A DNA stretch of 64,000 nucleotides. Source: Vicinamibacterales bacterium. GTDB taxonomy: Bacteria; Acidobacteriota; Vicinamibacteria; Vicinamibacterales; UBA8438. Below, piece after piece: positions 35,857 to 42,877 of the stretch. The first letter of the stretch is position 1. Each line of letters starts with the position of its first letter. The position numbers and the translations under genes were made by a program. The stretch lies in contig OZ244976.1 of NCBI GenBank assembly GCA_965222905.1, positions 7,301,261 to 7,365,260 of the forward strand. Reading direction: 5' to 3'. The notes below the pieces were generated by a model that saw only the letters and a program-made list of their open reading frames with translations, ran no database searches and was not told the DNA's origin.

Positions 35857-37018
35857 GTAGAGTCGACGACTGGCGCGGTGGCGGTAGGCGGATGGGGGTA
35901 GCTGTTTCCGGCGGCTTTCGCAATGCCGGTGCCTCACTCCCCGCCGTGGCTCCGTTTCCAGTCGCCGCTCATCGAACCGGACGGGCGGTTTTCCCGCATC
36001 CGGCTCTCGGACGAGATCATGCCTTCGCCCACGGAAAGCTCGTCGTACGCGGTCCAAGGTGCGTTAGCCCGTAGTCGATCCACAGCCGCTCGTCCGGGAA
36101 GCGCACGGATTTCCCGGACCGTACCTTGTGCTTGCGACAGAGCCACTGGCGCAGCCGCCGGGTGGCGTGCTGGTCGATTGCTGCGTAGGCCGGGCTGACC
36201 TGACCCAAGGTGAAGTAGTTCGCCCAGCCGGTCAGCAACCGGTTGATGCGACCCACCACGACCTCGGGTTCCAGAAGCCCGTAACGCGACGCGGTCAGCT
36301 CACTCACGCGACGGCAGATGCTCTGGACGCTCGCCGGGCTCGGGCGGGTGCCGATGTAGGCGCGGCCCGTATCCCGACGGTAGTTGCGTCCAATCCGGTA
36401 GCCGAGGAACGTCATCGACTCCTCCGGCACCCGGCAGCAGCGGGTCTTCTCGGCGTTGATGGGCAACTTCAGACGCTTCAGCAGGCCTTCGACCGCCGAC
36501 CGCATTGCTGCCGCCGGCGCCTTGCCGAGCACCGCGAAGTCGTCCGCGTAGTTGACGATTTCCGCCTCGAAGCGCCGGGCATAGCCCAACACCTTCCAAC
36601 CCAGAATGAAGCGACGCATGTAGATGTTGCTGAACAGCGGCGAAATCGGTGACCCTTGCGGGGTCCCTTTCCGCTCACGACGCGCCCGGTTCGTGAGGCG
36701 GCGTCCGCCGTGACCGTCGTCATCTTCTACCGCCATCTCCAGCCATGCCTTGACCCACCCCAACAGCCGCCCGTCGCTCACGCGCCGGGCGATGGACCGC
36801 AGCAGGTCGGCGTGCGGGATTTGGCCGAAGTAGTCTGACAAGTCGGCGTCAACCACCTCCTCGTGGCCCGTATTCAGCAGCCGGTGCACGCGCTTGACCG
36901 CGCCGTGCGCGTGTCGGCCCGGCCGATAGGCGTACTGCTCCGGTTGCAGGTCGGCTTCGAAGATAGGCGACAACACCAGCATCGCCGCCGTCTGCGCCAC
37001 CCGGTCCCGGAGGCACGG
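35857..37018 (-). mobile_element. Group II intron A, 3' half (RT C-terminal part, DV, DVI, 3' end ...ACTCTAC)
   Basis: DV 'GAGCCGGATGCGGGAAAACCGCCCGTCCGGTTC' just downstream of the RT stop; long DVI ending in AC at 35857. Confidence 0.9.
36017..37018 (-). pseudogene. ltrA: Group II intron RT/maturase, 5'-truncated at the GxP motif (class F/G-like by recall)
   Basis: 'LRDRVAQ', 'YAYRPGR', 'DADLSDYF..IPH', 'GTPQGSPISPLFSNIY', YADD, thumb 'GWANYF'. Confidence 0.9.
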
Positions 37019-37076
37019 GACGCCGGCTTCATAATGCACCTCCTGCAGCACGGCTTCGGGATTCTCGTGCGACCGT

Positions 37077-39119
37077 TCAAATTCTCGAGGAGTTTCGGAC
37101 CCAGGCGCGCAATGTCTCCTTTTTGTCGTCGTCGAAGGCGATCCAGTACGGCGAGCCGTGGTTAGGTCGTCGAGCCGTGACTACGCCGCGGTCGATCCAG
37201 TAGTAGACCACATTGCGGCTGACGCCGAGTTCGTCGGCGACCTGACGGACGCTGCGCTCGCCGGGGCGCTTGAAGTCGGGAGCCGGAATCCGGTGCTTGT
37301 GGCGGATCCAACGGACCATCGAGACGTTGAATGCCCCGCCTTTGGCGCTCCGGCGACCCTCCCGGTTCAGCGCTGCTGCGACCTGCTCGTCGGAGCGCTC
37401 GCGAGCCAGCTCGCGCACCCGGTCGACGACCTCGTCGGGATACCGGAGGCGATCGGCAATGTTGGCGGGCAGCGTAACCTCGAGGTCTTCGCAGGCCCCA
37501 CCCTGCCACCGGACATGCAAGATGGCGGTCTTGCGTTCGCCGAACCGCTCGACGGTGATGTCCTTGATCACGAGCCGGAGGATGCGCTTCTTGTCCTTCG
37601 CCTTGGTCGTGGGCGCGTTCCACAGGCGGGGGAAGTCGTGGGCGAGCGCCGCCACCCGGGCGCGCTGCTCCGGCGTGACCACGAGCGCTTCCTTGCTCTG
37701 AAAGTCAGCAAACTGCGTCCTGACCTCTTCGAGCCGCACCAGGGCGTCGTTCCAGCGCTGCTCGAGCGTCGCGGCCACGAGGCGATTCGACGGATCGACC
37801 TCCTCGTAGCGGCGCTGGGCCAACTGCGCTTCGTACTCGGCTCGTTCCAGGCGCATGCGCCATTGGCCGGACATCGCCTTGTCCCGGTGTTCGAGCTGCC
37901 GTAGCGCTTCCTCGGCGACCTCGAGCTCGGCAGGTTCGAGCACCGCCAGCATCCGCTCCGAGACCGCGGTGTCCAGCAGGTCGCAACGCAGGCTCATGCA
38001 GCTGGTGGTCGCCACTCCTTCGCGCCGCCGCGCGTTGCATTCGTAGGTCGGGTAGATGCCGCCGTTGCCCTTGTAGCGGACGGTCAGTCGGCGACCGCAG
38101 CGCCCGCACAGCAGCAGGCCTTGGAGCAGTGCGAGTCCTTCCCGCGCGGCGCCGCTCAAGAGCATGTGCTCGGCATTGGTACGGTTGTTCTCGAGCAGCT
38201 GCTGGTTCCGCTCGTACTCCGGCCAGGAGACATAGCCGTCGTGGTGATTCTGGATCCGCACGAGCCAGGCGTCCAGCGGGACGCAGCGCGTGCGCATGCG
38301 GACGTCGCCTTCGGGGGAAACCTCCTTCGTGCTCTGGTGACGCCCGAAGACATACGCCCCGGCATACGTGGGGTTCTTGAGAATGTCGAGCACGCGGTTG
38401 TGGTTCAGCCGACCCCAGATGAGTCTGCCGTCCCACGCCCCGCCGTAGGCGCGCTTCGGGAACCGCAGTTGCTGTCGGCCGAAGTGGTGCACGACCGCGT
38501 AGGCGCTGCCCGTCTGGCGGAAGACCTCGAAGACCAGCCGGACAGCGCCCTGGACCTCCTGGTCCGGATCGAGCACGATGCGCCCCTCGTCGGCGTAGCA
38601 CAGGCCGATCGGCAACGGGAAGCGGAGCTCACCCTTCTGGGCCTTGTGGAGCTTGCCGCCCTGGAGGCGCGCGCGAATGACGTGCAGCTCGGCCTGGGCG
38701 ATGGTGGCCTTGAGGCCCAACAGCAGCGCGTCGTTGAAGTCCGCCGGGTCGTAGCAGCCGTCCTCGTCGATGACCAGCGTCCGGGTCAGCGCGCAGATCT
38801 CGATCAACCGATGCCATTCCAGGTTCGAGCGGGCCAACCGTGAGGCTTCCAGGGCAAAGATCGCGCCGACGCGGCCCAGCGACACATCGGCGACCAGCGT
38901 CTTGAAGTCCTCGCGGTTGGTCGTCTGCGCCCCCGACTGCCCGAGGTCCTGGTCGAGGATCCGGATTCGCTCCGGCGCCCACATCATCTCGACGGCCCGG
39001 TTCCGCAGGTCGTACTGCCGCTCGGTACTCTCCTGGTGATGGCGCACCTGCCCCATCGTCGACTGCCGGATATAGATGTAGGCCGGCTTCTGCAGGTGGT
39101 GGCTCTGTACTTTCGACAT
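37077..39119 (-). CDS. Large serine recombinase (resolvase + recombinase + Zn ribbon + coiled coil + C-terminal HTH)
   Basis: 'YIYIRQST' catalytic Ser, 'DLGQSG', 'EASRLARS', 'ILKNPTYAG', 'LLQGLLLCGRCG'. Confidence 0.93.
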   Translation of the reverse strand: MSKVQSHHLQKPAYIYIRQSTMGQVRHHQESTERQYDLRNRAVEMMWAPERIRILDQDLGQSGAQTTNREDFKTLVADVSLGRVGAIFALEASRLARSNLEWHRLIEICALTRTLVIDEDGCYDPADFNDALLLGLKATIAQAELHVIRARLQGGKLHKAQKGELRFPLPIGLCYADEGRIVLDPDQEVQGAVRLVFEVFRQTGSAYAVVHHFGRQQLRFPKRAYGGAWDGRLIWGRLNHNRVLDILKNPTYAGAYVFGRHQSTKEVSPEGDVRMRTRCVPLDAWLVRIQNHHDGYVSWPEYERNQQLLENNRTNAEHMLLSGAAREGLALLQGLLLCGRCGRRLTVRYKGNGGIYPTYECNARRREGVATTSCMSLRCDLLDTAVSERMLAVLEPAELEVAEEALRQLEHRDKAMSGQWRMRLERAEYEAQLAQRRYEEVDPSNRLVAATLEQRWNDALVRLEEVRTQFADFQSKEALVVTPEQRARVAALAHDFPRLWNAPTTKAKDKKRILRLVIKDITVERFGERKTAILHVRWQGGACEDLEVTLPANIADRLRYPDEVVDRVRELARERSDEQVAAALNREGRRSAKGGAFNVSMVRWIRHKHRIPAPDFKRPGERSVRQVADELGVSRNVVYYWIDRGVVTARRPNHGSPYWIAFDDDKKETLRAWVRNSSRI

Positions 39120-39282
39120 CGTCAGCACCACCCTCGATCAGTTCCTGACGGGTGTGGGACGGAAGCGCGTGCCCGCTCGTCGCAGCGGCCGCGCGCTCGG
39201 AAGCGATCCAGCACTGCAGCATGTTCGCGGTCAACAGGCCGGCGGTCTGGACATCGACGGGCACGGCGGCCGCCATCTGCAT

Positions 39283-39627
39283 TCAGTCGATCGGCTCCCG
39301 ACGTCGCAGCAGCTCGAGGTTGATCGCGGCGATCTCGTCGAGGAGCTGTCGCGTCCGGCGGTAGTTGGCGACGAACTGCTCGACCTGGCTGCGATGCTCC
39401 TGCGGCACGTAGACCATGACCGGTCGCGCCTTCGGCATGCTGACCGACAGGTACAGCTTCGGACCGTGGCCGATACCGCGCGCGCACTTGCACCCTGGTC
39501 GTCCGCAGCGCTTGAAGCGTTCGATGAGCGAGCCGCGCAGGATGGCCTTCAGGGACGGGAGCTGCCGCAGCAGCATTGTCCGGCGCCTCCGTAACGTACT
39601 CGCCAAGCGTGTTTTCAGACCAGTCAT
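39283..39627 (-). CDS. DUF6788-like protein
   Basis: 'LRGSL....RCGRPGCKC..G.GHGP..YLS...YVP'. Confidence 0.75.
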   Translation of the reverse strand: MTGLKTRLASTLRRRRTMLLRQLPSLKAILRGSLIERFKRCGRPGCKCARGIGHGPKLYLSVSMPKARPVMVYVPQEHRSQVEQFVANYRRTRQLLDEIAAINLELLRRREPID

Positions 39628-39657
39628 ACAACTGGTCTGATACTACACCTCTCGACC

Positions 39658-39976
39658 TCATTTGGGAAGCCCTCGGTCGTCGGCCTGCTCCAAGGCCGCC
39701 AACAGCTCGGTCAGCGCGATGAGCTTCACGAAATCGAGGACATGAGCGCCGCTCGCAAGATCCGCCGCCGCGGCCGGAACCTCTCGATCCGTCCACTCGC
39801 GGGGCACGCAGAACGTACCTCCGGAGGTGCCCTGCAGAATGAGCGTGTCGATGCCGGAGACGCGGCGCGTCTTCAGGATCGGAAACCGCCGACCCCGGAG
39901 TGGATGAAACGGGTGGGTGATCTCAGTCCACCCCGACGGCTCGTTGGGGCGATGTGCAGTTCGCGATGACCGTGGG
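39658..39976 (-). CDS. DUF5372 (Y4bD/Y4pK-like) protein with no start codon ahead of the conserved motif inside the integrated element
   Basis: 'ITHPFHPLRGRRF', 'VPREWTD'; frame is open up to the att junction. Confidence 0.7.
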
Positions 39977-40765
39977 AATGCCCAAGCGGCGCTCGCTTCC
40001 GTCCTTCTTCGGTATCCCAACCGACCGGACCGGAGGCGGGAAGTACGTGCCCGACGACATCCGATTCCAAATCTTGTAGAGATTGTTCTTCAGGTCCTGC
40101 TCGAACATCTCGACAGACTCAGCATCGACGCCAGCTGCTCCGTGGTTCGCCTTGACCCGAGTGTAGGCCTCCCAAACCACCCACTTGGAAATATTGAACG
40201 GCTTCGCGTGGCTCGACGGCTCCTCCCGCGCGCGCGGTTGACCGTCGGGACACGCAGGATGACGCGACCCCTTTGCTCCATCGAGTTTCCCCGACTTCAT
40301 CGCTCGTACGGGTCGCTCCGCCCCTGTGCCTCGCATCGGGCTTCTCATCCTTGGGGGTCGGCCCCTTGGATTTCTCCCTTCACATCGAGGCGACAGGTTC
40401 CCACGTTCCACACAAGGGCCTGGTGCAGGGTCACGCCACCTTTATGCCGGGTGCCGCCCAGCCAAGCTGCAGGCTCCCGCTGGACTTGTCCCGGGTTAAC
40501 GACTCGCCCCGGTTTCGACACCGTCCCTACGCTTTCGACACGTTGCCGGTGGTTCATACACTTCGTCTCCCTGTACCCTACCTGACGCGGTCAAGCCGCG
40601 CCGTTTCCGTGACGCTTACCACCTCGGCTCTTGACCGAAGCAGCGCACGGCGGTTTGAAGCCTCCCCCTGCCGGGCGGCTCCGAGGGGCCTGCCCTCATC
40701 CCTCATGCAGCATGGCTGCAGCTAGGTGGCCATCTCGGCCTCCTTTCCGCGCCTTCGTGGCGCAC
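39975..40765 (-). mobile_element. Group II intron B (class D, RmInt1-like), 5' half
   Basis: 5' GTGCG at 40765; RT N-terminus 'KPFNISK..VWEAY..VKAN.GAAGVD...NLYKIWNRMSSGTYFPPPVR' at 40216-39975; expected start codon reads TCG after GGAGG. Confidence 0.88.
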
Positions 40766-41525
40766 AATCATCGGCGTAACGCACGATGATAGTGTCCCCC
40801 GTAGCCTTTCGGGCGCGCCACTTCTTCTGGAACCAGAGGTCGAGGACATAGTGCAGGTAAACGTTGGCGAGGATGGGTGAAACCACCGCGCCTTGCGGCG
40901 TTCCCTGCAGGTCGTCCTTCCACTCACCATCTTCCATGACGCCGGCGTTCAGCCACTTGGTAATCAGCCGGAGTACCCGTTTGTCCCCTATTCGGTCCTC
41001 GAGAAACCGCAACAGGTGGTCTCGTGAGAGCCGGTCGAAGAACGCCCGGATGTCCGCATCGATTATCCAGTTGACCTTATGCCGTGCAATCCCGAAAGCC
41101 AGGGCGTCAAGCGCATCGTGCGCCCCGCGCCCCGGTCGGAACCCGTAGCTGAACCCGAGAAACTCCGGCTCGTAAATCGGCGTCAGGATTACATCCACTA
41201 CCGCCTTCTGGACGATCTTGTCCTCCAGGGCAGCAATGCCGAGCGGTCGTGTCCCGCCGTCCGGTTTGGGTATTTCAACCCGCCGCGACGGCAGCGCCCG
41301 ATACGCTCCCGTGTGTACGCGTCCGTGCAGGTCGAGCAACCGCTCTTCCAGTCCGTCCTCGTACTCCTTCCACACCAGACCATCCACGCCAGCCGATGCG
41401 GTCTTCTGTAAATCGTAGAAGGCGCACCGCAGCGCGGCCGTCGTGATGTGGTGCAAGAGCGCAGTCAGTTTCTCCTGCGGCTTTCTCGTTGCAGCTTGCC
41501 GTATCCGCTCGACCGCCTGTGACAC
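40766..41525 (-). pseudogene. ltrA: Group II intron RT (class E-like), cut immediately after YADD
   Basis: 'TALLHHI', 'RPLGIAALEDKIVQ', 'GTPQGAVVSPILANVYLHYVLDLWF', 'IVRYADD'. Confidence 0.9.
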
Positions 41526-41643
41526 GCTCTCCCGACCCTGCGTCCGGTACGTGCTTTGGTCTTGCGAATTCCCCTTGGTTGAGGCCCTTCCCTCCAGCAG
41601 CTCCGCAGGTGCTGTCGCTCCCTTGTTCGCCGCTTTCATCGGT

Positions 41644-42483
41644 GTCGGGTCGGAGGAGGCGCGCCCCGCGGGCGCTGGCCTCCGTCCGCCGCTCAAACGG
41701 TACGTGCGGTTTTCCCGCATACCGCTTTCACGAAGACGTCTTCGCGTGATGAGGACCGATGGAGGAATCAAAGAGTGGACCCTCCTCCGGCCCGTCGGGT
41801 TCAGCCAGTCGGCAAGTCTCCTCGGTCGCTGATGTTGGGGTCTTTCACTCATGGAACTGTCCACCTCAGCGCCCTTGCTCATCTCACCGTCCTGTCTGGT
41901 CCCGACCGTCTTCGCCGGCCGCCTTCCCCAACCCACTCGGTTGCCGCCCCCTGACGGTCACGCGGCTTTCACCGCGCTTCAGGTACTATTCGGCCGTCCG
42001 ACTCCTCGACGAGCATCCCTTCCCACTTCGCTCTCGCTTATAGGGTCAGTTGCCGCGGCGCCACCCGCGGACCCGCCGAGGTCTCCCAGGGTCACGCACT
42101 GGTCTTCCATACCGTGCCGCCCGCAAACACCTTGGTGCGGTGGGTGGATGAGATCGCCTTCGCCTCTGTAGTGCAGGCTCGACCTTGCCCCACCTTTGGC
42201 CGACCGGTTCGTCATGGGGTCGCCCCCTCGACTACGGCCCGGTACTGCTCCGCAAACCCTTCGGACCCCACCTCACGGTGGGCGCCCTGTCCTCCGCAGT
42301 TCCGTCGTGGCGGCTCCAGGTCCACCTTGGCTGTGTCCAGCTTTCGCCTGCGTGCCCGTCTAGGTATCTCCATACCTGCCACCTGCGGCCGGCGAGGCAT
42401 TACCCCCGCCTTTGGATACGGCCCCCCTCATCCGGGGGCCGGAGGGACTTCAACCCTCCTGACCAGTGCGCTGCCTGGCGCAC
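41644..42483 (-). ncRNA. ORF-less group II intron D, copy 1 (840 nt)
   Basis: GTGCG start; DV 'AAGCGGTATGCGGGAAAACCGCACGTACCGTTT'; end ...GACCCGAC; removal restores host DIII 'GAGGCAGTAGT|ACCGATG'. Confidence 0.9.
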
Positions 42484-42877
42484 ACTACTGCCTCATCCGA
42501 CTTCTTCATTCCGTGCACCATCGGATACGGAATCCTCCTTCCCTCTGCGGCCCCGGTCCGACTGCCGGGGCAGAATGAAGACCTCCCAGGTCCCAACGAA
42601 GGACGTACGGACGTGCCTGGGTTCTTTGACACCGTGGAGCCCTCCATCACCTCACCTGTCCCGGCGATGTCGGTGTGGCCTTCGACCGCGTTGATAGTCT
42701 CGGCGCTCCAGACCTGCATGTTTTCGATGCTCAATAGCCCTGCCCGTCCGCGCCCCTGTCAACGCTTCACCTGCCGCCTCACAGCGACCGGTGCATGACT
42801 CGGGGTGAAGGTGGTCGGTTACTCCTTCCTTCCGCCGGACTTTCACCGGCCATCCTCCGCCAGTTTGCCTGGCGCAC

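Follow-up and report, generated by a model that had tools for sequence, protein, structure and literature searches.

A reading frame without a start codon at one end of a mobile element, and an outward-pointing ribosome-binding site and start codon at its other end, raise the question of whether the two belong to one gene that is whole only when the element is excised as a circle. The locus lies in a 64,000-nucleotide stretch of Vicinamibacterales bacterium DNA (contig OZ244976.1), referred to here in its full length as the window. The original prediction, made from the sequence alone, held that the joined attachment site of the circle (attP) assembles a Shine-Dalgarno (SD) sequence and an ATG in frame with a DUF5372-like reading frame, that the protein is made only from the circle, and that it could be a directionality or regulatory factor.

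A serine recombinase element in reverse transcriptase genes

Positions 37019-39976 of the window (minus strand) hold a 2.96-kb element with genes for a DUF5372 protein, a DUF6788 protein, and a 684-residue large serine recombinase (LSR). We propose that it is an insertion-sequence-like element mobilized by the LSR, its mobility being inferred. Its target is a group II intron reverse transcriptase (RT) gene, which is broken at the LGIP codons. The features of the insertion are as follows.

40580-40697: group II intron domains D1-D4
39977..40411, minus strand: 5' part of the RT gene (the target), ending ...RLGI-P, paired with the uninterrupted copies L005 and L006
39975..39976, minus strand: CC core of the left junction (attL), from three copies and two empty sites
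39658..39975, minus strand: body of the DUF5372 gene, startless before THPFHP (PF17342, E=1e-18)
39283..39627, minus strand: DUF6788 gene, 114 residues with a Cys-rich motif, the variable middle gene (PF20586, E=2e-28)
37077..39131, minus strand: LSR gene, 684 residues, the last gene, with its stop 44 nt before the junction ATG
37017..37018, minus strand: CC core of the right junction (attR), from three copies and two empty sites
36017..37016, minus strand: 3' part of the RT gene (RVT_1 PF00078, E=1.1e-26; GIIM PF08388, E=2.5e-15)
35857-36008: Intron_gpII match

The recombinase meets the definition of an LSR by its domain order, in which the resolvase catalytic domain (PF00239, E=3.7e-18) is followed by the recombinase domain (PF07508, E=3.5e-15) and the zinc ribbon (Zn_ribbon_recom PF13408, E=3.8e-12); an HTH_17-like stretch lies at the C terminus. 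Its relatives share 55-99% identity with it. A total of 484 genomic loci were confirmed. DUF5372 and the LSR are present in all clades examined and form an invariant pair, and the middle genes vary. DUF6788 had no tblastn match in four relatives (L023, L024, L031, and L050), whose cassettes are shorter by about 250 nt, and is not annotated in a Streptomyces relative (L189); it therefore stands outside the invariant pair. NCBIfam has no model for DUF5372 or DUF6788. A literature search found no paper naming DUF5372, DUF6788, or y4bD/y4pK, and, judged from the titles and abstracts listed, none dealt with LSR elements inside RT genes (supplementary att-site tables were outside its scope).

The window genome carries three near-identical copies of the element and two uninterrupted target sites, the RT copies L005 and L006; a related genome carries at least four full cassettes and one remnant. 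Cultured carriers include Paraburkholderia phymatum STM815, with a copy on pBPHY02, and Cupriavidus. Comparison of the three insertions with the two empty sites left the dinucleotide CC as the sole exchange point. Empty-site contigs in public runs part from the window exactly after 37018, and the empty-site forms were seen among Logan contigs as loose ends at 37018 and 39968. The original prediction had cited the frame match as support for a CC crossover; the copies and empty sites now fix that crossover independently of the frame, and the proposed boundary at 37019 is one base off, which is immaterial. Of 57 related loci, 52 have identical core dinucleotides at their two ends and 5 do not; in metagenomes, the cores are identical in 41/41 loci that hold both ends. 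The core also sets orientation: CC-core copies are in the sense direction of the RT gene and GG-core copies are antisense to it; of 106 distinct GG-core flanks, 100 resemble RT when reverse complemented. The flank pattern was loose, and its hits with any other core, mostly chance matches, were left out.

A distal start codon in frame across attP

At the right end of the element, and across the joint with its left end, the following features can be read.

37039..37043, minus strand: Shine-Dalgarno-like GGAGG, pointing outward, with an SD match in relatives
37038-37033, minus strand: 6-nt spacer between GGAGG and ATG
37030..37032, minus strand: ATG at which the joined DUF5372 gene would start, 14 nt from the crossover
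37019..37045, minus strand: right (P) arm of attP, comprising a distal GTGCA (37039-37035), the start codon, and a crossover-proximal arm; conserved across 50 distinct junctions
39940..39974, minus strand: left (P') arm of attP, equal to codons 6 to about 17 of the junction reading frame and including ACTGCAC (39960-39954)

The GGAGG, the spacer, and the outward ATG all lie on the minus strand where they had been placed. As had also been claimed, no ATG, GTG, or TTG precedes THPFHP in the DUF5372 frame inside the window element. The only listed start for that frame is a TTG at 40020, in host DNA and in a frame other than that of the interrupted RT gene. A DUF5372-RT frame fusion was rejected as a candidate because the two are read in different frames and the RT frame meets a stop 17 codons inside the element. 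Joining the ends at the CC core places the distal ATG in frame with DUF5372 over 14 + 2 + 56 nt, or 24 codons, and the reconstructed junction (L001) reproduces the predicted junction peptide exactly. The att site is thus inside a gene of the element, with the crossover at codon 5/6 of the junction reading frame, and it is DUF5372 that is split upon integration; the LSR gene stays whole.

The prediction was to be judged by whether the distal SD and ATG, and the frame across attP, are conserved in homologs. They are, both among dozens of divergent elements and in clades that are only distantly related. In 57 loci from several phyla, the same layout recurs, with the start codon followed by 14 nt, the core, and 56 nt up to xHPFHP. 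The junction frame contains a stop in 0 of 49 distinct junctions, and the other two frames contain one in 41/49 and 37/49; with two conserved positions excluded, the numbers of stop trinucleotides by phase are 0, 15, and 20. In a second junction set, stops occur by frame in 0, 24, and 18 of 24 junctions. The start codon is ATG in 46/49 distinct junctions, GTG in 1/49, and ACG in 2/49. An SD duplex energy of -6 or lower was reached at 46 of the 49 junction starts, versus 1 of 40 internal TTG codons and 51 of 290 control windows. Two false right-end matches in interrupted copies (L039 and L072) were dropped from the junction, conservation, and SD counts, and L008 was dropped from the SD and internal-start counts. 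The junction could not be evaluated in L197 (LSR cut by an ISL3 element), L191 (without an identifiable downstream LSR), L018 at its second LSR (where a DUF5372-like motif could not be found), or L003 (right end past an inserted repeat). The distal SD and ATG in frame with DUF5372 are confirmed as real and family-wide, and the conservation of frame, start codon, and SD is in excess of chance.

This conservation has to be weighed against the possibility that the SD-like block and ATG are maintained solely as a recombinase binding site, the P arm, with DUF5372 translated in both states from an internal or noncanonical start and the in-frame layout without function. The site is one that an LSR would be expected to recognize: attP is about 45-50 bp long, with imperfect inverted symmetry and distal and proximal motifs in both arms, GTGCA on the right and TGCAC on the left being mirror symmetric at 17.5-21.5 nt from the core and the proximal arms partly palindromic. 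The ATG sits between GTGCA and the crossover-proximal arm, in DNA that the recombinase must recognize. In the left arm, conservation extends to all three codon positions, a pattern that indicates constraint on the DNA, and junction nucleotides 9-35 are conserved at every codon position. The first ~12 codons past the crossover are likewise conserved at the DNA level, as an attP arm, and the junction alignment revealed no clear amino-acid-level conservation in the ~18 N-terminal residues; part of the conservation therefore reflects the att site.

Binding alone does not account for the rest. The ATG has no counterpart at its mirror positions in the other arm and exceeds those positions in information content. 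The purine block of the SD shifts relative to GTGCA and still remains within SD range, as would be expected of an SD and not of a fixed protein-binding motif. The junction frame is stop free in both junction sets (49 and 24 distinct junctions), with stops at variable positions in the other frames, and where spacing changes, inside the att arms or outside them, it does so only in multiples of 3. The right end also supplies the start in a sister family whose att geometry is different, the distance between the start and its TC core being 8 or 11 nt.

The evidence on internal starts is divided. An in-frame internal ATG, GTG, or TTG is present in 44 of 63 distinct left ends, and PGAP calls an internal GTG for the DUF5372 gene of Paraburkholderia phymatum; in two related elements (L032 and L061), ACG replaces the junction ATG and the DUF5372 frame is still intact. 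Against this, 19 of the 63 left ends, the window's included, have no internal start, the common TTG position is occupied by a non-start codon in 23/63, and 39 of 40 internal TTGs lack an SD. Among integrated left junctions, 18/93 are without any in-frame start, and the best SD reaches -6 in 14/75. In members that do have an internal start, gating may be leaky or unnecessary. We regard a pure binding-site explanation as improbable.

Equally, the outward SD and ATG might serve the integrated state by restarting translation into the flanking host gene, either rescuing the 3' part of the RT or making a fusion peptide. The ATG does face outward, and in the window it opens a 68-codon frame into host DNA (ORF 36874-37080). 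That frame is not the RT frame, though, the GG-core elements lie antisense to RT so that there is no common host product, and other clades are inserted in IS21 or IS66 genes; no host-directed open frame downstream of the ATG was seen to be conserved across insertion sites. This explanation has almost nothing left to recommend it.

Direct evidence of the circle is lacking. The forms seen are integrated copies and empty sites. The exact 24-nt right-end stretch of the window had no match in metagenome contigs. A 23-nt right-end stretch common to relatives had 99 metagenome matches, none of which continues into a left end; 94 continue into host RT sequence and 5 end at the contig end. No circle joint was found in two RNA-library runs and two other runs, for which only contigs were searched, so that the result is uninformative on the absence of circles. 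In the RNA libraries, contigs cover the LSR and DUF6788 genes only in part and at low, patchy depth; they could derive from DNA and are likewise uninformative on expression. A promoter and terminator scan of 36900-40200, which saw the separate ends and not the joined sequence, returned 0 sites and no sigma-70-like promoter. That DUF5372 is made only from the circle is hence supported by inference from sequence, without circle-junction or expression data. Translation from the junction, also an inference, we consider likely.

Predicted contact with the recombinase and direction of control

The window DUF5372 protein matches PF17342 with 67.6 bits against a cut-off of 25, and the DUF5372 profile recovers 1368 cluster representatives at E<=0.001. 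An AF2 model (mean pLDDT, 81.5) has an SH3/KOW-like barrel, a C-terminal helix, and a disordered N-terminal stretch. Fold searches with this model gave only weak SH3/KOW-like matches, the best in the PDB being ribosomal protein eS4 (E about 2e-3), and a BFVD search gave nothing below 1e-3; the profile found nothing below E 0.65 among PDB sequences.

A model of the DUF5372-LSR complex reached an ipSAE of 0.67 in three runs, and the best of three controls reached 0.00. This mark is attained by 58 of 80 solved complexes and by 2 of 110 mismatched pairs. The runs shared no fewer than 74% of contacts, and the partner pLDDT was at least 68; the score is the model's own confidence, and the alignments were self-made. 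The predicted contacts join LSR residues 341-347, 397-413, and 483-548 to DUF5372 residues 22-26 and 68-99, which places DUF5372 on the zinc ribbon (DBD2) and the base of the coiled coil. They include the DUF5372 C-terminal helix (residues 77-99) and HPFHP loop, and LSR residues 517-521 and 541-545. This placement comes from a model only, with no binding measurement. The same site, contacted through a C-terminal helix, is used by the recombination directionality factor (RDF) of SPbeta integrase (PMC11722253). On the strength of the model and in the absence of binding data, we think it somewhat more probable than otherwise that DUF5372 binds the LSR. A directionality or regulatory role for the protein, as first suggested, is accordingly supported by its predicted location on the LSR, where RDFs bind, and the direction of control remains open.

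DUF5372 resembles the known RDFs (SprB of SPbeta, gp3 of phiC31) in being a small protein of the same element as its LSR, a criterion that it meets in all clades examined, and in its predicted position on DBD2 and the coiled-coil base via the C-terminal helix. It differs from them in that it shows no relation, by sequence or by fold, to a solved structure and in that its synthesis appears to depend on the excised state, the reverse of what would be required of a canonical excision factor. An excision-promoting RDF made only after excision would be paradoxical, and we therefore leave the direction of control open.

One way to accommodate a canonical RDF is that the gating is real and DUF5372 promotes attL x attR excision and blocks integration in a feed-forward burst. 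Rare leaky synthesis would lead to a first excision, RDF made from that circle would drive the excision of other copies, and re-integration would follow only once the RDF drops below the level of the recombinase. The predicted contact site is that of the SPbeta RDF, the multi-copy state of these elements makes action in trans possible, and many members have a weak internal start. However, if most of the RDF were made after excision, it would inhibit the step that the circle has to take next, and the window clade has no in-frame start inside the integrated element. In addition, TnpX is a precedent for an LSR that needs no accessory protein in either direction (work cited in PMC3158075). We judge this alternative unlikely, though less so than a pure binding site.

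The reading that we favor, and hold as a whole to be fairly probable, is that attP lies inside the 5' end of DUF5372 and that the protein is a directionality factor gated by recombination state, made from the circle, and favoring integration. DUF5372 would be the first gene of the element. Integration at CC would leave the right end, downstream of the LSR, with the SD, the ATG, and four and a half initial codons, and the left end with the remainder of the gene. Excision to a circle would rejoin the halves, giving the gene order LSR, DUF5372, middle gene(s), and full-length DUF5372 would be initiated efficiently from the attP form only. The protein would then bind the zinc ribbon and coiled-coil base of the LSR, where known directionality factors act, and bias it toward re-integration, upon which the gene would be split anew and the factor would decay. 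Taken by itself, the pro-integration direction is a tentative inference, for which our confidence falls short of even.

Known systems and distant relatives

Genes split by integration are known from the SSV-type suicidal tyrosine integrases (SSV1, pTN3, pT26-2), in which the att site lies in a gene of the element that is whole only in the circle; according to a review, such self-disrupting recombinases are exclusively archaeal (PMC8371274). The window element shares with them an att site inside its own gene, split by integration. It does not meet the SSV-type criterion that the split gene be a tyrosine integrase: SSV splits the tyrosine recombinase itself, whereas the window element leaves its serine recombinase intact and splits a small accessory gene, of which no more than the SD, the start codon, and about 5 codons are cut off. 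The SSV-type elements are archaeal viruses and plasmids, whereas the hosts here are bacterial. A literature search found no paper on a gene or start codon assembled by a circle joint.

Circles of IS911 and IS30 have junction promoters. The circle of IS621 (IS110 family) reconstitutes one too, which raises expression and drives insertion (PMC13626964). In both IS621 and the window element, joining the ends gives rise to an expression signal that the integrated form lacks; in IS621 this signal favors re-insertion, and in the window element it would do so. The difference is one of level: IS621 assembles a promoter and thus acts on transcription, whereas here a translation start would be joined in frame to a coding body.

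The circle joint of Tn4451 forms a promoter for tnpX. Tn4451 and Tn4453 are LSR-moved transposons with a circular form and a 2-bp crossover, like the element described here, and TnpX alone suffices for their transposition (PMC3158075). They carry cargo and use many targets, whereas the window element is a minimal, cargo-free 3-kb unit with strict targeting to conserved codons of mobile-element genes and a split accessory gene.

Genome engineering relies heavily on large serine integrases, for which the control of direction is still the chief practical difficulty. If our reading holds, the element would provide a compact natural module with a new directionality partner and a ready-made sensor of recombination state. 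It would extend split-by-integration genes from archaeal tyrosine integrases to bacteria and serine recombinases, supply a translational counterpart to the junction promoters of insertion sequence circles, give a testable function to two families of unknown function, and expose widespread elements that parasitize group II introns and insertion sequences.

Distant clades occupy other targets, namely, IS21 istA, an IS66 tnpB-like gene, and a second RT motif, with TT, CG, and TC cores. Their boundaries were inferred from core equality and interrupted host genes, without empty sites. The spacings are 53, 56, or 59 nt on one side and 8 or 11 nt on the other, all differences being multiples of 3, and the frame is kept in 10 of 10 evaluable distant relatives. 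At least six of these relatives have an LSR stop codon that overlaps the junction start, which suggests translational coupling across the joint. The genes may then form a circular operon, with coupling across attP between the stop of the LSR gene and the start of DUF5372, and integration would break this operon inside codon 5/6; the element would thereby sense whether it is in or out. The targets seen among carriers are the RT motifs LGIP and ..KFFD.., IS21 istA, the IS66 tnpB-like gene, and probably an IS3 transposase. It is possible, at a little under even chances in our estimate, that DUF5372 proteins are a new class of serine-integrase directionality factors hard-wired to recombination state in such a circular operon and that their carriers make up a large, undescribed superfamily of LSR hyper-parasites.

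RefSeq names the homologs "Y4bD/Y4pK family" or "DUF5372 family" proteins. Annotation pipelines assign them varied N termini, which we attribute to the start of the gene being situated at the other end of the element.

A nested cassette and its crossover site

The element occupies window 37019-39976 (-) as a compact three-gene cassette and splits the reverse-transcriptase (RT) gene of a group II intron. The 5' RT half ends ...RLGIP, and RVT_1 and GIIM lie in the 3' half.

Features of the window element
40580-40697, minus strand: intron RNA domains D1-D4, on one side of the cassette
39976-39975, minus strand: CC core, left junction
39975-39658, minus strand: DUF5372 frame (PF17342, E=1e-18)
39627-39283, minus strand: DUF6788 gene (PF20586, E=2e-28)
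39131-37077, minus strand: large serine recombinase (LSR) gene; its 684-aa product has the domains Resolvase, Recombinase and Zn_ribbon_recom, plus a weak HTH_17/excisionase-like match at the C-terminus
37043-37039, minus strand: GGAGG, SD-like, right end
37032-37030, minus strand: ATG after a 6-nt spacer, 14 nt before the crossover, pointing out of the element
37018-37017, minus strand: CC core, right junction
35857-36008, minus strand: intron RNA domain D5/6 match, on the other side of the cassette

The crossover was located by comparing three left junctions, three right junctions and two empty sites from the same genome (9.35 Mb, 2 contigs), which holds three near-identical cassette copies and uninterrupted copies of the target. 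All left junctions share host-side ...GGGCAT(T/A)CC followed by identical element sequence, and at every right junction a common element end gives way to host sequence. The downstream host sequence of the window copy departs from that of the other two directly after CC, so the exchange point can only be this dinucleotide. Rejoining the host flanks restores in-frame RT (GIP-C/T...). Empty-site contigs of public runs part from the window exactly after 37018, and, among the related loci compared below, four stand-alone contigs (2936-2948 bp) consist of the element alone, starting and ending at the predicted boundaries. The RNA-library runs X15 and X16, which contain 0.29 and 0.21 of the sampled words of the stretch, are labelled sponge metagenome; the DNA-like runs carry only coded labels, and we therefore claim no habitat.

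Mobile elements are nested across window 35857-42843 (-), with the LSR element within the RT gene of a group II intron. The cassette-bearing intron itself appears to lie inside the RT gene of another group II intron, whose D1-D4 are at 42620-42843 and whose RT frame (41936-40722) breaks off just past the YADD motif. The third copy in the genome (L003/L004, C2:7390442-7391069) is disrupted near the LSR gene end by a ~635-bp repeat, and its LSR is additionally in two tblastn pieces, split at residue 414. This repeat has 9 near-full genomic copies (97-100%) and seems to have arisen by deletion from a ~1.3-kb element, of which the genome has at least 30 copies. The C-terminal extension of the LSR (residues ~560-684, window 37077-37450) gives its HTH_17/excisionase-like match at E 2.9e-4, below the Pfam cut-off, and matches TIGR01764 'excise' at E 0.0027; it might be a built-in Xis-like DNA-binding domain relevant to directionality. 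The DUF6788-LSR spacer (~140-150 nt, window about 39130-39282, -), found also in relatives, holds a conserved block reading as a short peptide, ..DVQxAGxLLANMLExWL.., which begins at or near the DUF6788 stop; a fourth small gene and a regulatory region are both possible. In most relatives the LSR gene has an SD-like GAGGAGG of its own.

A start codon predicted to be assembled at the joined ends

The original prediction held that DUF5372 is an excision-gated gene, its SD and start codon lying at the far end of the element and coming into frame across the CC core. This arrangement is confirmed. Between the element boundary and THPFHP, the DUF5372 frame contains neither ATG nor GTG nor TTG, and the CC crossover puts the distal ATG in frame 14 + 2 + 56 nt, or 24 codons, before that motif. 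The junction peptide was reproduced from the window copy (L001), and all predicted coordinates stand except the right-junction core, now corrected to 37018-37017. The in-frame start across the reconstructed junction is real; its interpretation as excision gating has support from the sequences and from a structural model, though not yet from experiment.

A pattern scan of one genome per species returned 598 matches, 484 of which were confirmed by tblastn. The best 80 of these 484 loci, taken for comparison, come from Acidobacteriota, Burkholderiales, Planctomycetota, Myxococcota and other groups, and most carry the same cassette (LSR identity, 55-99%). The right end has a fixed order of purine-rich SD-like block, GTGCATT, start codon, 14 nt and core dinucleotide; the left end has the core dinucleotide and then 56 nt to xHPFHP. 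With two false right-end matches (L039 and L072) left out, both ends were available for 57 loci. Their cores (CC, GG, GC or GT) are equal at both ends in 52/57, and the five unequal pairs (L026, L047, L050, L064 and L067) count against the pattern. No stop interrupts the junction frame in any of 49 distinct 72-nt junctions; the other two frames contain stops in 41/49 and 37/49. Stop trinucleotides by phase number 0, 55 and 51, or 0, 15 and 20 without conserved positions 1 and 65. The junction start codon is ATG in 46, GTG in one (L069) and ACG in two (L032 and L061), and these ACG variants, which retain intact genes, also count against it. A second, partly dependent set comprised 99 metagenome loci with one common right-end 23-mer, 41 of them holding both ends. 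Here the core is equal in 41/41, and stops in frames 0, 1 and 2 occur in 0/24, 24/24 and 18/24 distinct junctions. A decayed Glomeribacter copy, with an in-frame stop and a truncated LSR, is a further exception.

In junction nucleotides 9-35, conservation extends to all three codon positions, and this part contains mirror-symmetric motifs (GTGCA in the right arm, TGCAC in the left), each 17.5-21.5 nt from the core; judged by its sequence, this stretch is the attP site. Classic third-position wobble is seen only from LGWAEI onward, indicating that the ~18 residues at the N-terminus lack conservation at the protein level; in the AF2 model, the left-end frame is disordered over its first ~10 residues. 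The ATG has no mirror in the other arm and is better conserved than its mirror positions. In our view, this N-terminal stretch is an initiation adapter superimposed on the att site. Another conserved block, at 37045-37062 (-), falls outside the symmetric attP region, 13-30 nt upstream of the junction ATG, with the LSR stop on one side and the SD on the other. Its consensus is A-T-T/C-C-C-n-A-A, followed by CTG about 15 nt before the ATG; it might serve as a promoter element, as a further protein contact or as an RNA feature.

SD strength was scored as pairing to what we take to be the generic anti-SD motif, with a threshold of -6 kcal/mol. This value or better was found upstream of 46/49 junction starts (median, -8.7), at 1/40 internal TTG codons (median, -2.2) and in 51/290 control windows inside the element. 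The position of the SD block relative to GTGCA moves by a few bases between clades, a shift more readily explained by ribosome binding than by contact with a protein at a fixed site.

Strict gating is challenged by in-frame internal starts, present in two thirds of left ends. No ATG, GTG or TTG lies in frame inside the element in 19/63 distinct left ends, the window included, and the common TTG position (L of LGW) reads TCG, TTA, TGG or TTC in 23/63. When 93 distinct integrated left junctions are followed back to the first stop, no in-frame start is met in 18; in 11 the only such start lies in host DNA, and in 64 the element itself contains one. Even with the most favourable SD counted, -6 is attained in just 14/75. 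Gene calls vary. PGAP calls an internal GTG as the start in P. phymatum, and some called proteins begin with M right at THPFHP, where L016, the one locus checked, has ATC (protein-locus correspondence inferred). N-termini called in protein libraries are highly variable, some beginning inside the domain and others carrying long host-derived extensions. Such disagreement between pipelines is in line with weak or absent internal starts.

Distant clades and their targets

The strongest test of the junction frame came from distant clades, namely, plasmid-borne DUF5372 relatives (32-40% identity) and second LSR elements within the compared loci. Their boundaries were inferred from equal cores, similar arms and the host gene that is interrupted, not from empty sites.

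Junctions in distant clades (start codon and its distance to the core; core; spacing)
L189, Streptomyces sp. NBC_00289: RT gene at GIP-T; GGAGG; ATG, 14 nt; CC; 56 nt; LSR stop overlaps ATG
L190, L192 and L194, Rhizobium/Sinorhizobium: cassette of DUF5372, HTH protein, hypothetical protein and LSR; GTG, 14 nt; TT; 56 nt; in L190 and L192, target IS21 istA and LSR stop overlaps GTG; in L194, target other than IS21 istA
L193 and L195, R. leguminosarum/Alloyangia: IS66 tnpB-like; ATG, 14 nt; TT; 56 nt; stop-start overlap
L196, Burkholderia savannae: GTG, 14 nt; TT; 59 nt
L086, second element: ATG, 14 nt; CG; 53 nt
L048 and L078, sister family: second RT motif ..KFFD-R..; ATG, 8 or 11 nt; TC

The junction is in frame in 10/10 evaluable cases (L197, L191 and the second LSR of L018 were not evaluable), and all spacing differences (53, 56, 59; 8, 11) are multiples of three. 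The original prediction had made conservation of the distal SD-ATG and of the frame across attP its own test, and this was passed across deep divergence. The sister-family LSR is 38-40% identical, and the first gene has HPFEG, a variant of the DUF5372 motif. Members in L048, L049 and L078 sit about 400 nt upstream of the main element (motif ..LEKF(F/L)D-R..) in the same RT genes, so one RT gene can carry two different LSR parasites.

The close family targets the LGIP codons of RT genes. Right flanks read as RT at the expected position in 100/106 distinct GG-core and 16/21 CC-core cases, and 94/94 informative metagenome right ends continue into host sequence, which reads as RT in the rows translated. 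Orientation relative to the RT gene is sense for CC-core elements and antisense for GG-core ones, as expected of a non-palindromic 2-bp core. The more distant DUF5372-LSR cassettes seem to be directed at conserved codons in the transposase genes of other IS families, and the whole superfamily seems specialised in insertion into other mobile elements.

Among these distant cassettes, L196 lies, like L190 and L192, in IS21 istA, and L193 and L195 lie in IS66 tnpB-like genes. In the window's own genome, a cassette (L008/L191, C2:6717000-) appears to sit at the C-terminus of an IS3-type transposase; no LSR was detectable downstream of this copy.

DUF5372 and its predicted role

DUF5372 and the LSR form the invariant pair, and the middle genes vary. 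DUF6788 had no tblastn match in L023, L024, L031 or L050 and is unannotated in L189; rhizobia have other middle genes in its place. The AF2 model of DUF5372 (mean pLDDT, 81.5) has an SH3/KOW-like barrel (residues 15-58) and a C-terminal helix (82-101), and fold and sequence searches with the protein returned no informative relative. An LSR-DUF5372 complex model scored ipSAE 0.67 in three runs (best of 3 controls, 0.00), with at least 74% of contacts agreeing and partner pLDDT of at least 68. The ipSAE mark was reached by 58/80 solved complexes and 2/110 mismatched pairs, a calibration that is only rough here (own alignments). Predicted contacts join LSR residues 341-347 (zinc ribbon start), 397-413 and 483-548 (outgoing and returning coiled-coil base) to the HPFHP loop (22-26) and C-terminal helix region (68-99) of DUF5372. 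That DUF5372 binds the LSR is reasonably probable; the model supports this and does not show it.

In the circle, transcription past the LSR gene would run across attP, and ribosomes would start at the distal SD/ATG, with re-initiation at the stop-start overlap possible in several clades. Full-length DUF5372 would then be produced along with the LSR. Integration would split the gene, leaving the window element without means to initiate DUF5372. We consider translation from the junction likely; this step and LSR binding are inferred from sequence and modelling, without usable expression data. Neither the 94 informative metagenome right ends nor the public-run contigs showed a circle joint, and a promoter scan of 36900-40200 found none.

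The main functional rival is that DUF5372 is a canonical excision RDF with feed-forward action. It has its predicted binding site in common with RDFs but not their expression logic. A circle that does not re-insert is lost, and for this reason we tentatively favour re-integration as the direction that DUF5372 promotes, as the foremost of the possibilities though far from secured. TnpX, going by a title cited in PMC3158075, offers a precedent for an LSR excising unaided. Closest in concept is the SSV-type 'suicidal' integrase, which carries its att site within its own gene; such recombinases are exclusively archaeal according to the accessible portion of a review (PMC8371274). Here, in contrast, the recombinase is a serine enzyme that stays whole, and the split gene encodes an accessory factor. 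Junction promoters of IS circles follow the same logic but act on transcription; that of IS621, as far as the available text describes it, raises expression from the circular form and drives insertion (PMC13626964). The junction start would, by analogy, be its translational counterpart.

DUF5372, DUF6788 and y4bD/y4pK are unmentioned in the open-access papers and bioRxiv searched (supplements excluded). RefSeq calls the DUF5372 family 'Y4bD/Y4pK', a name that presumably derives from the NGR234 symbiotic plasmid.
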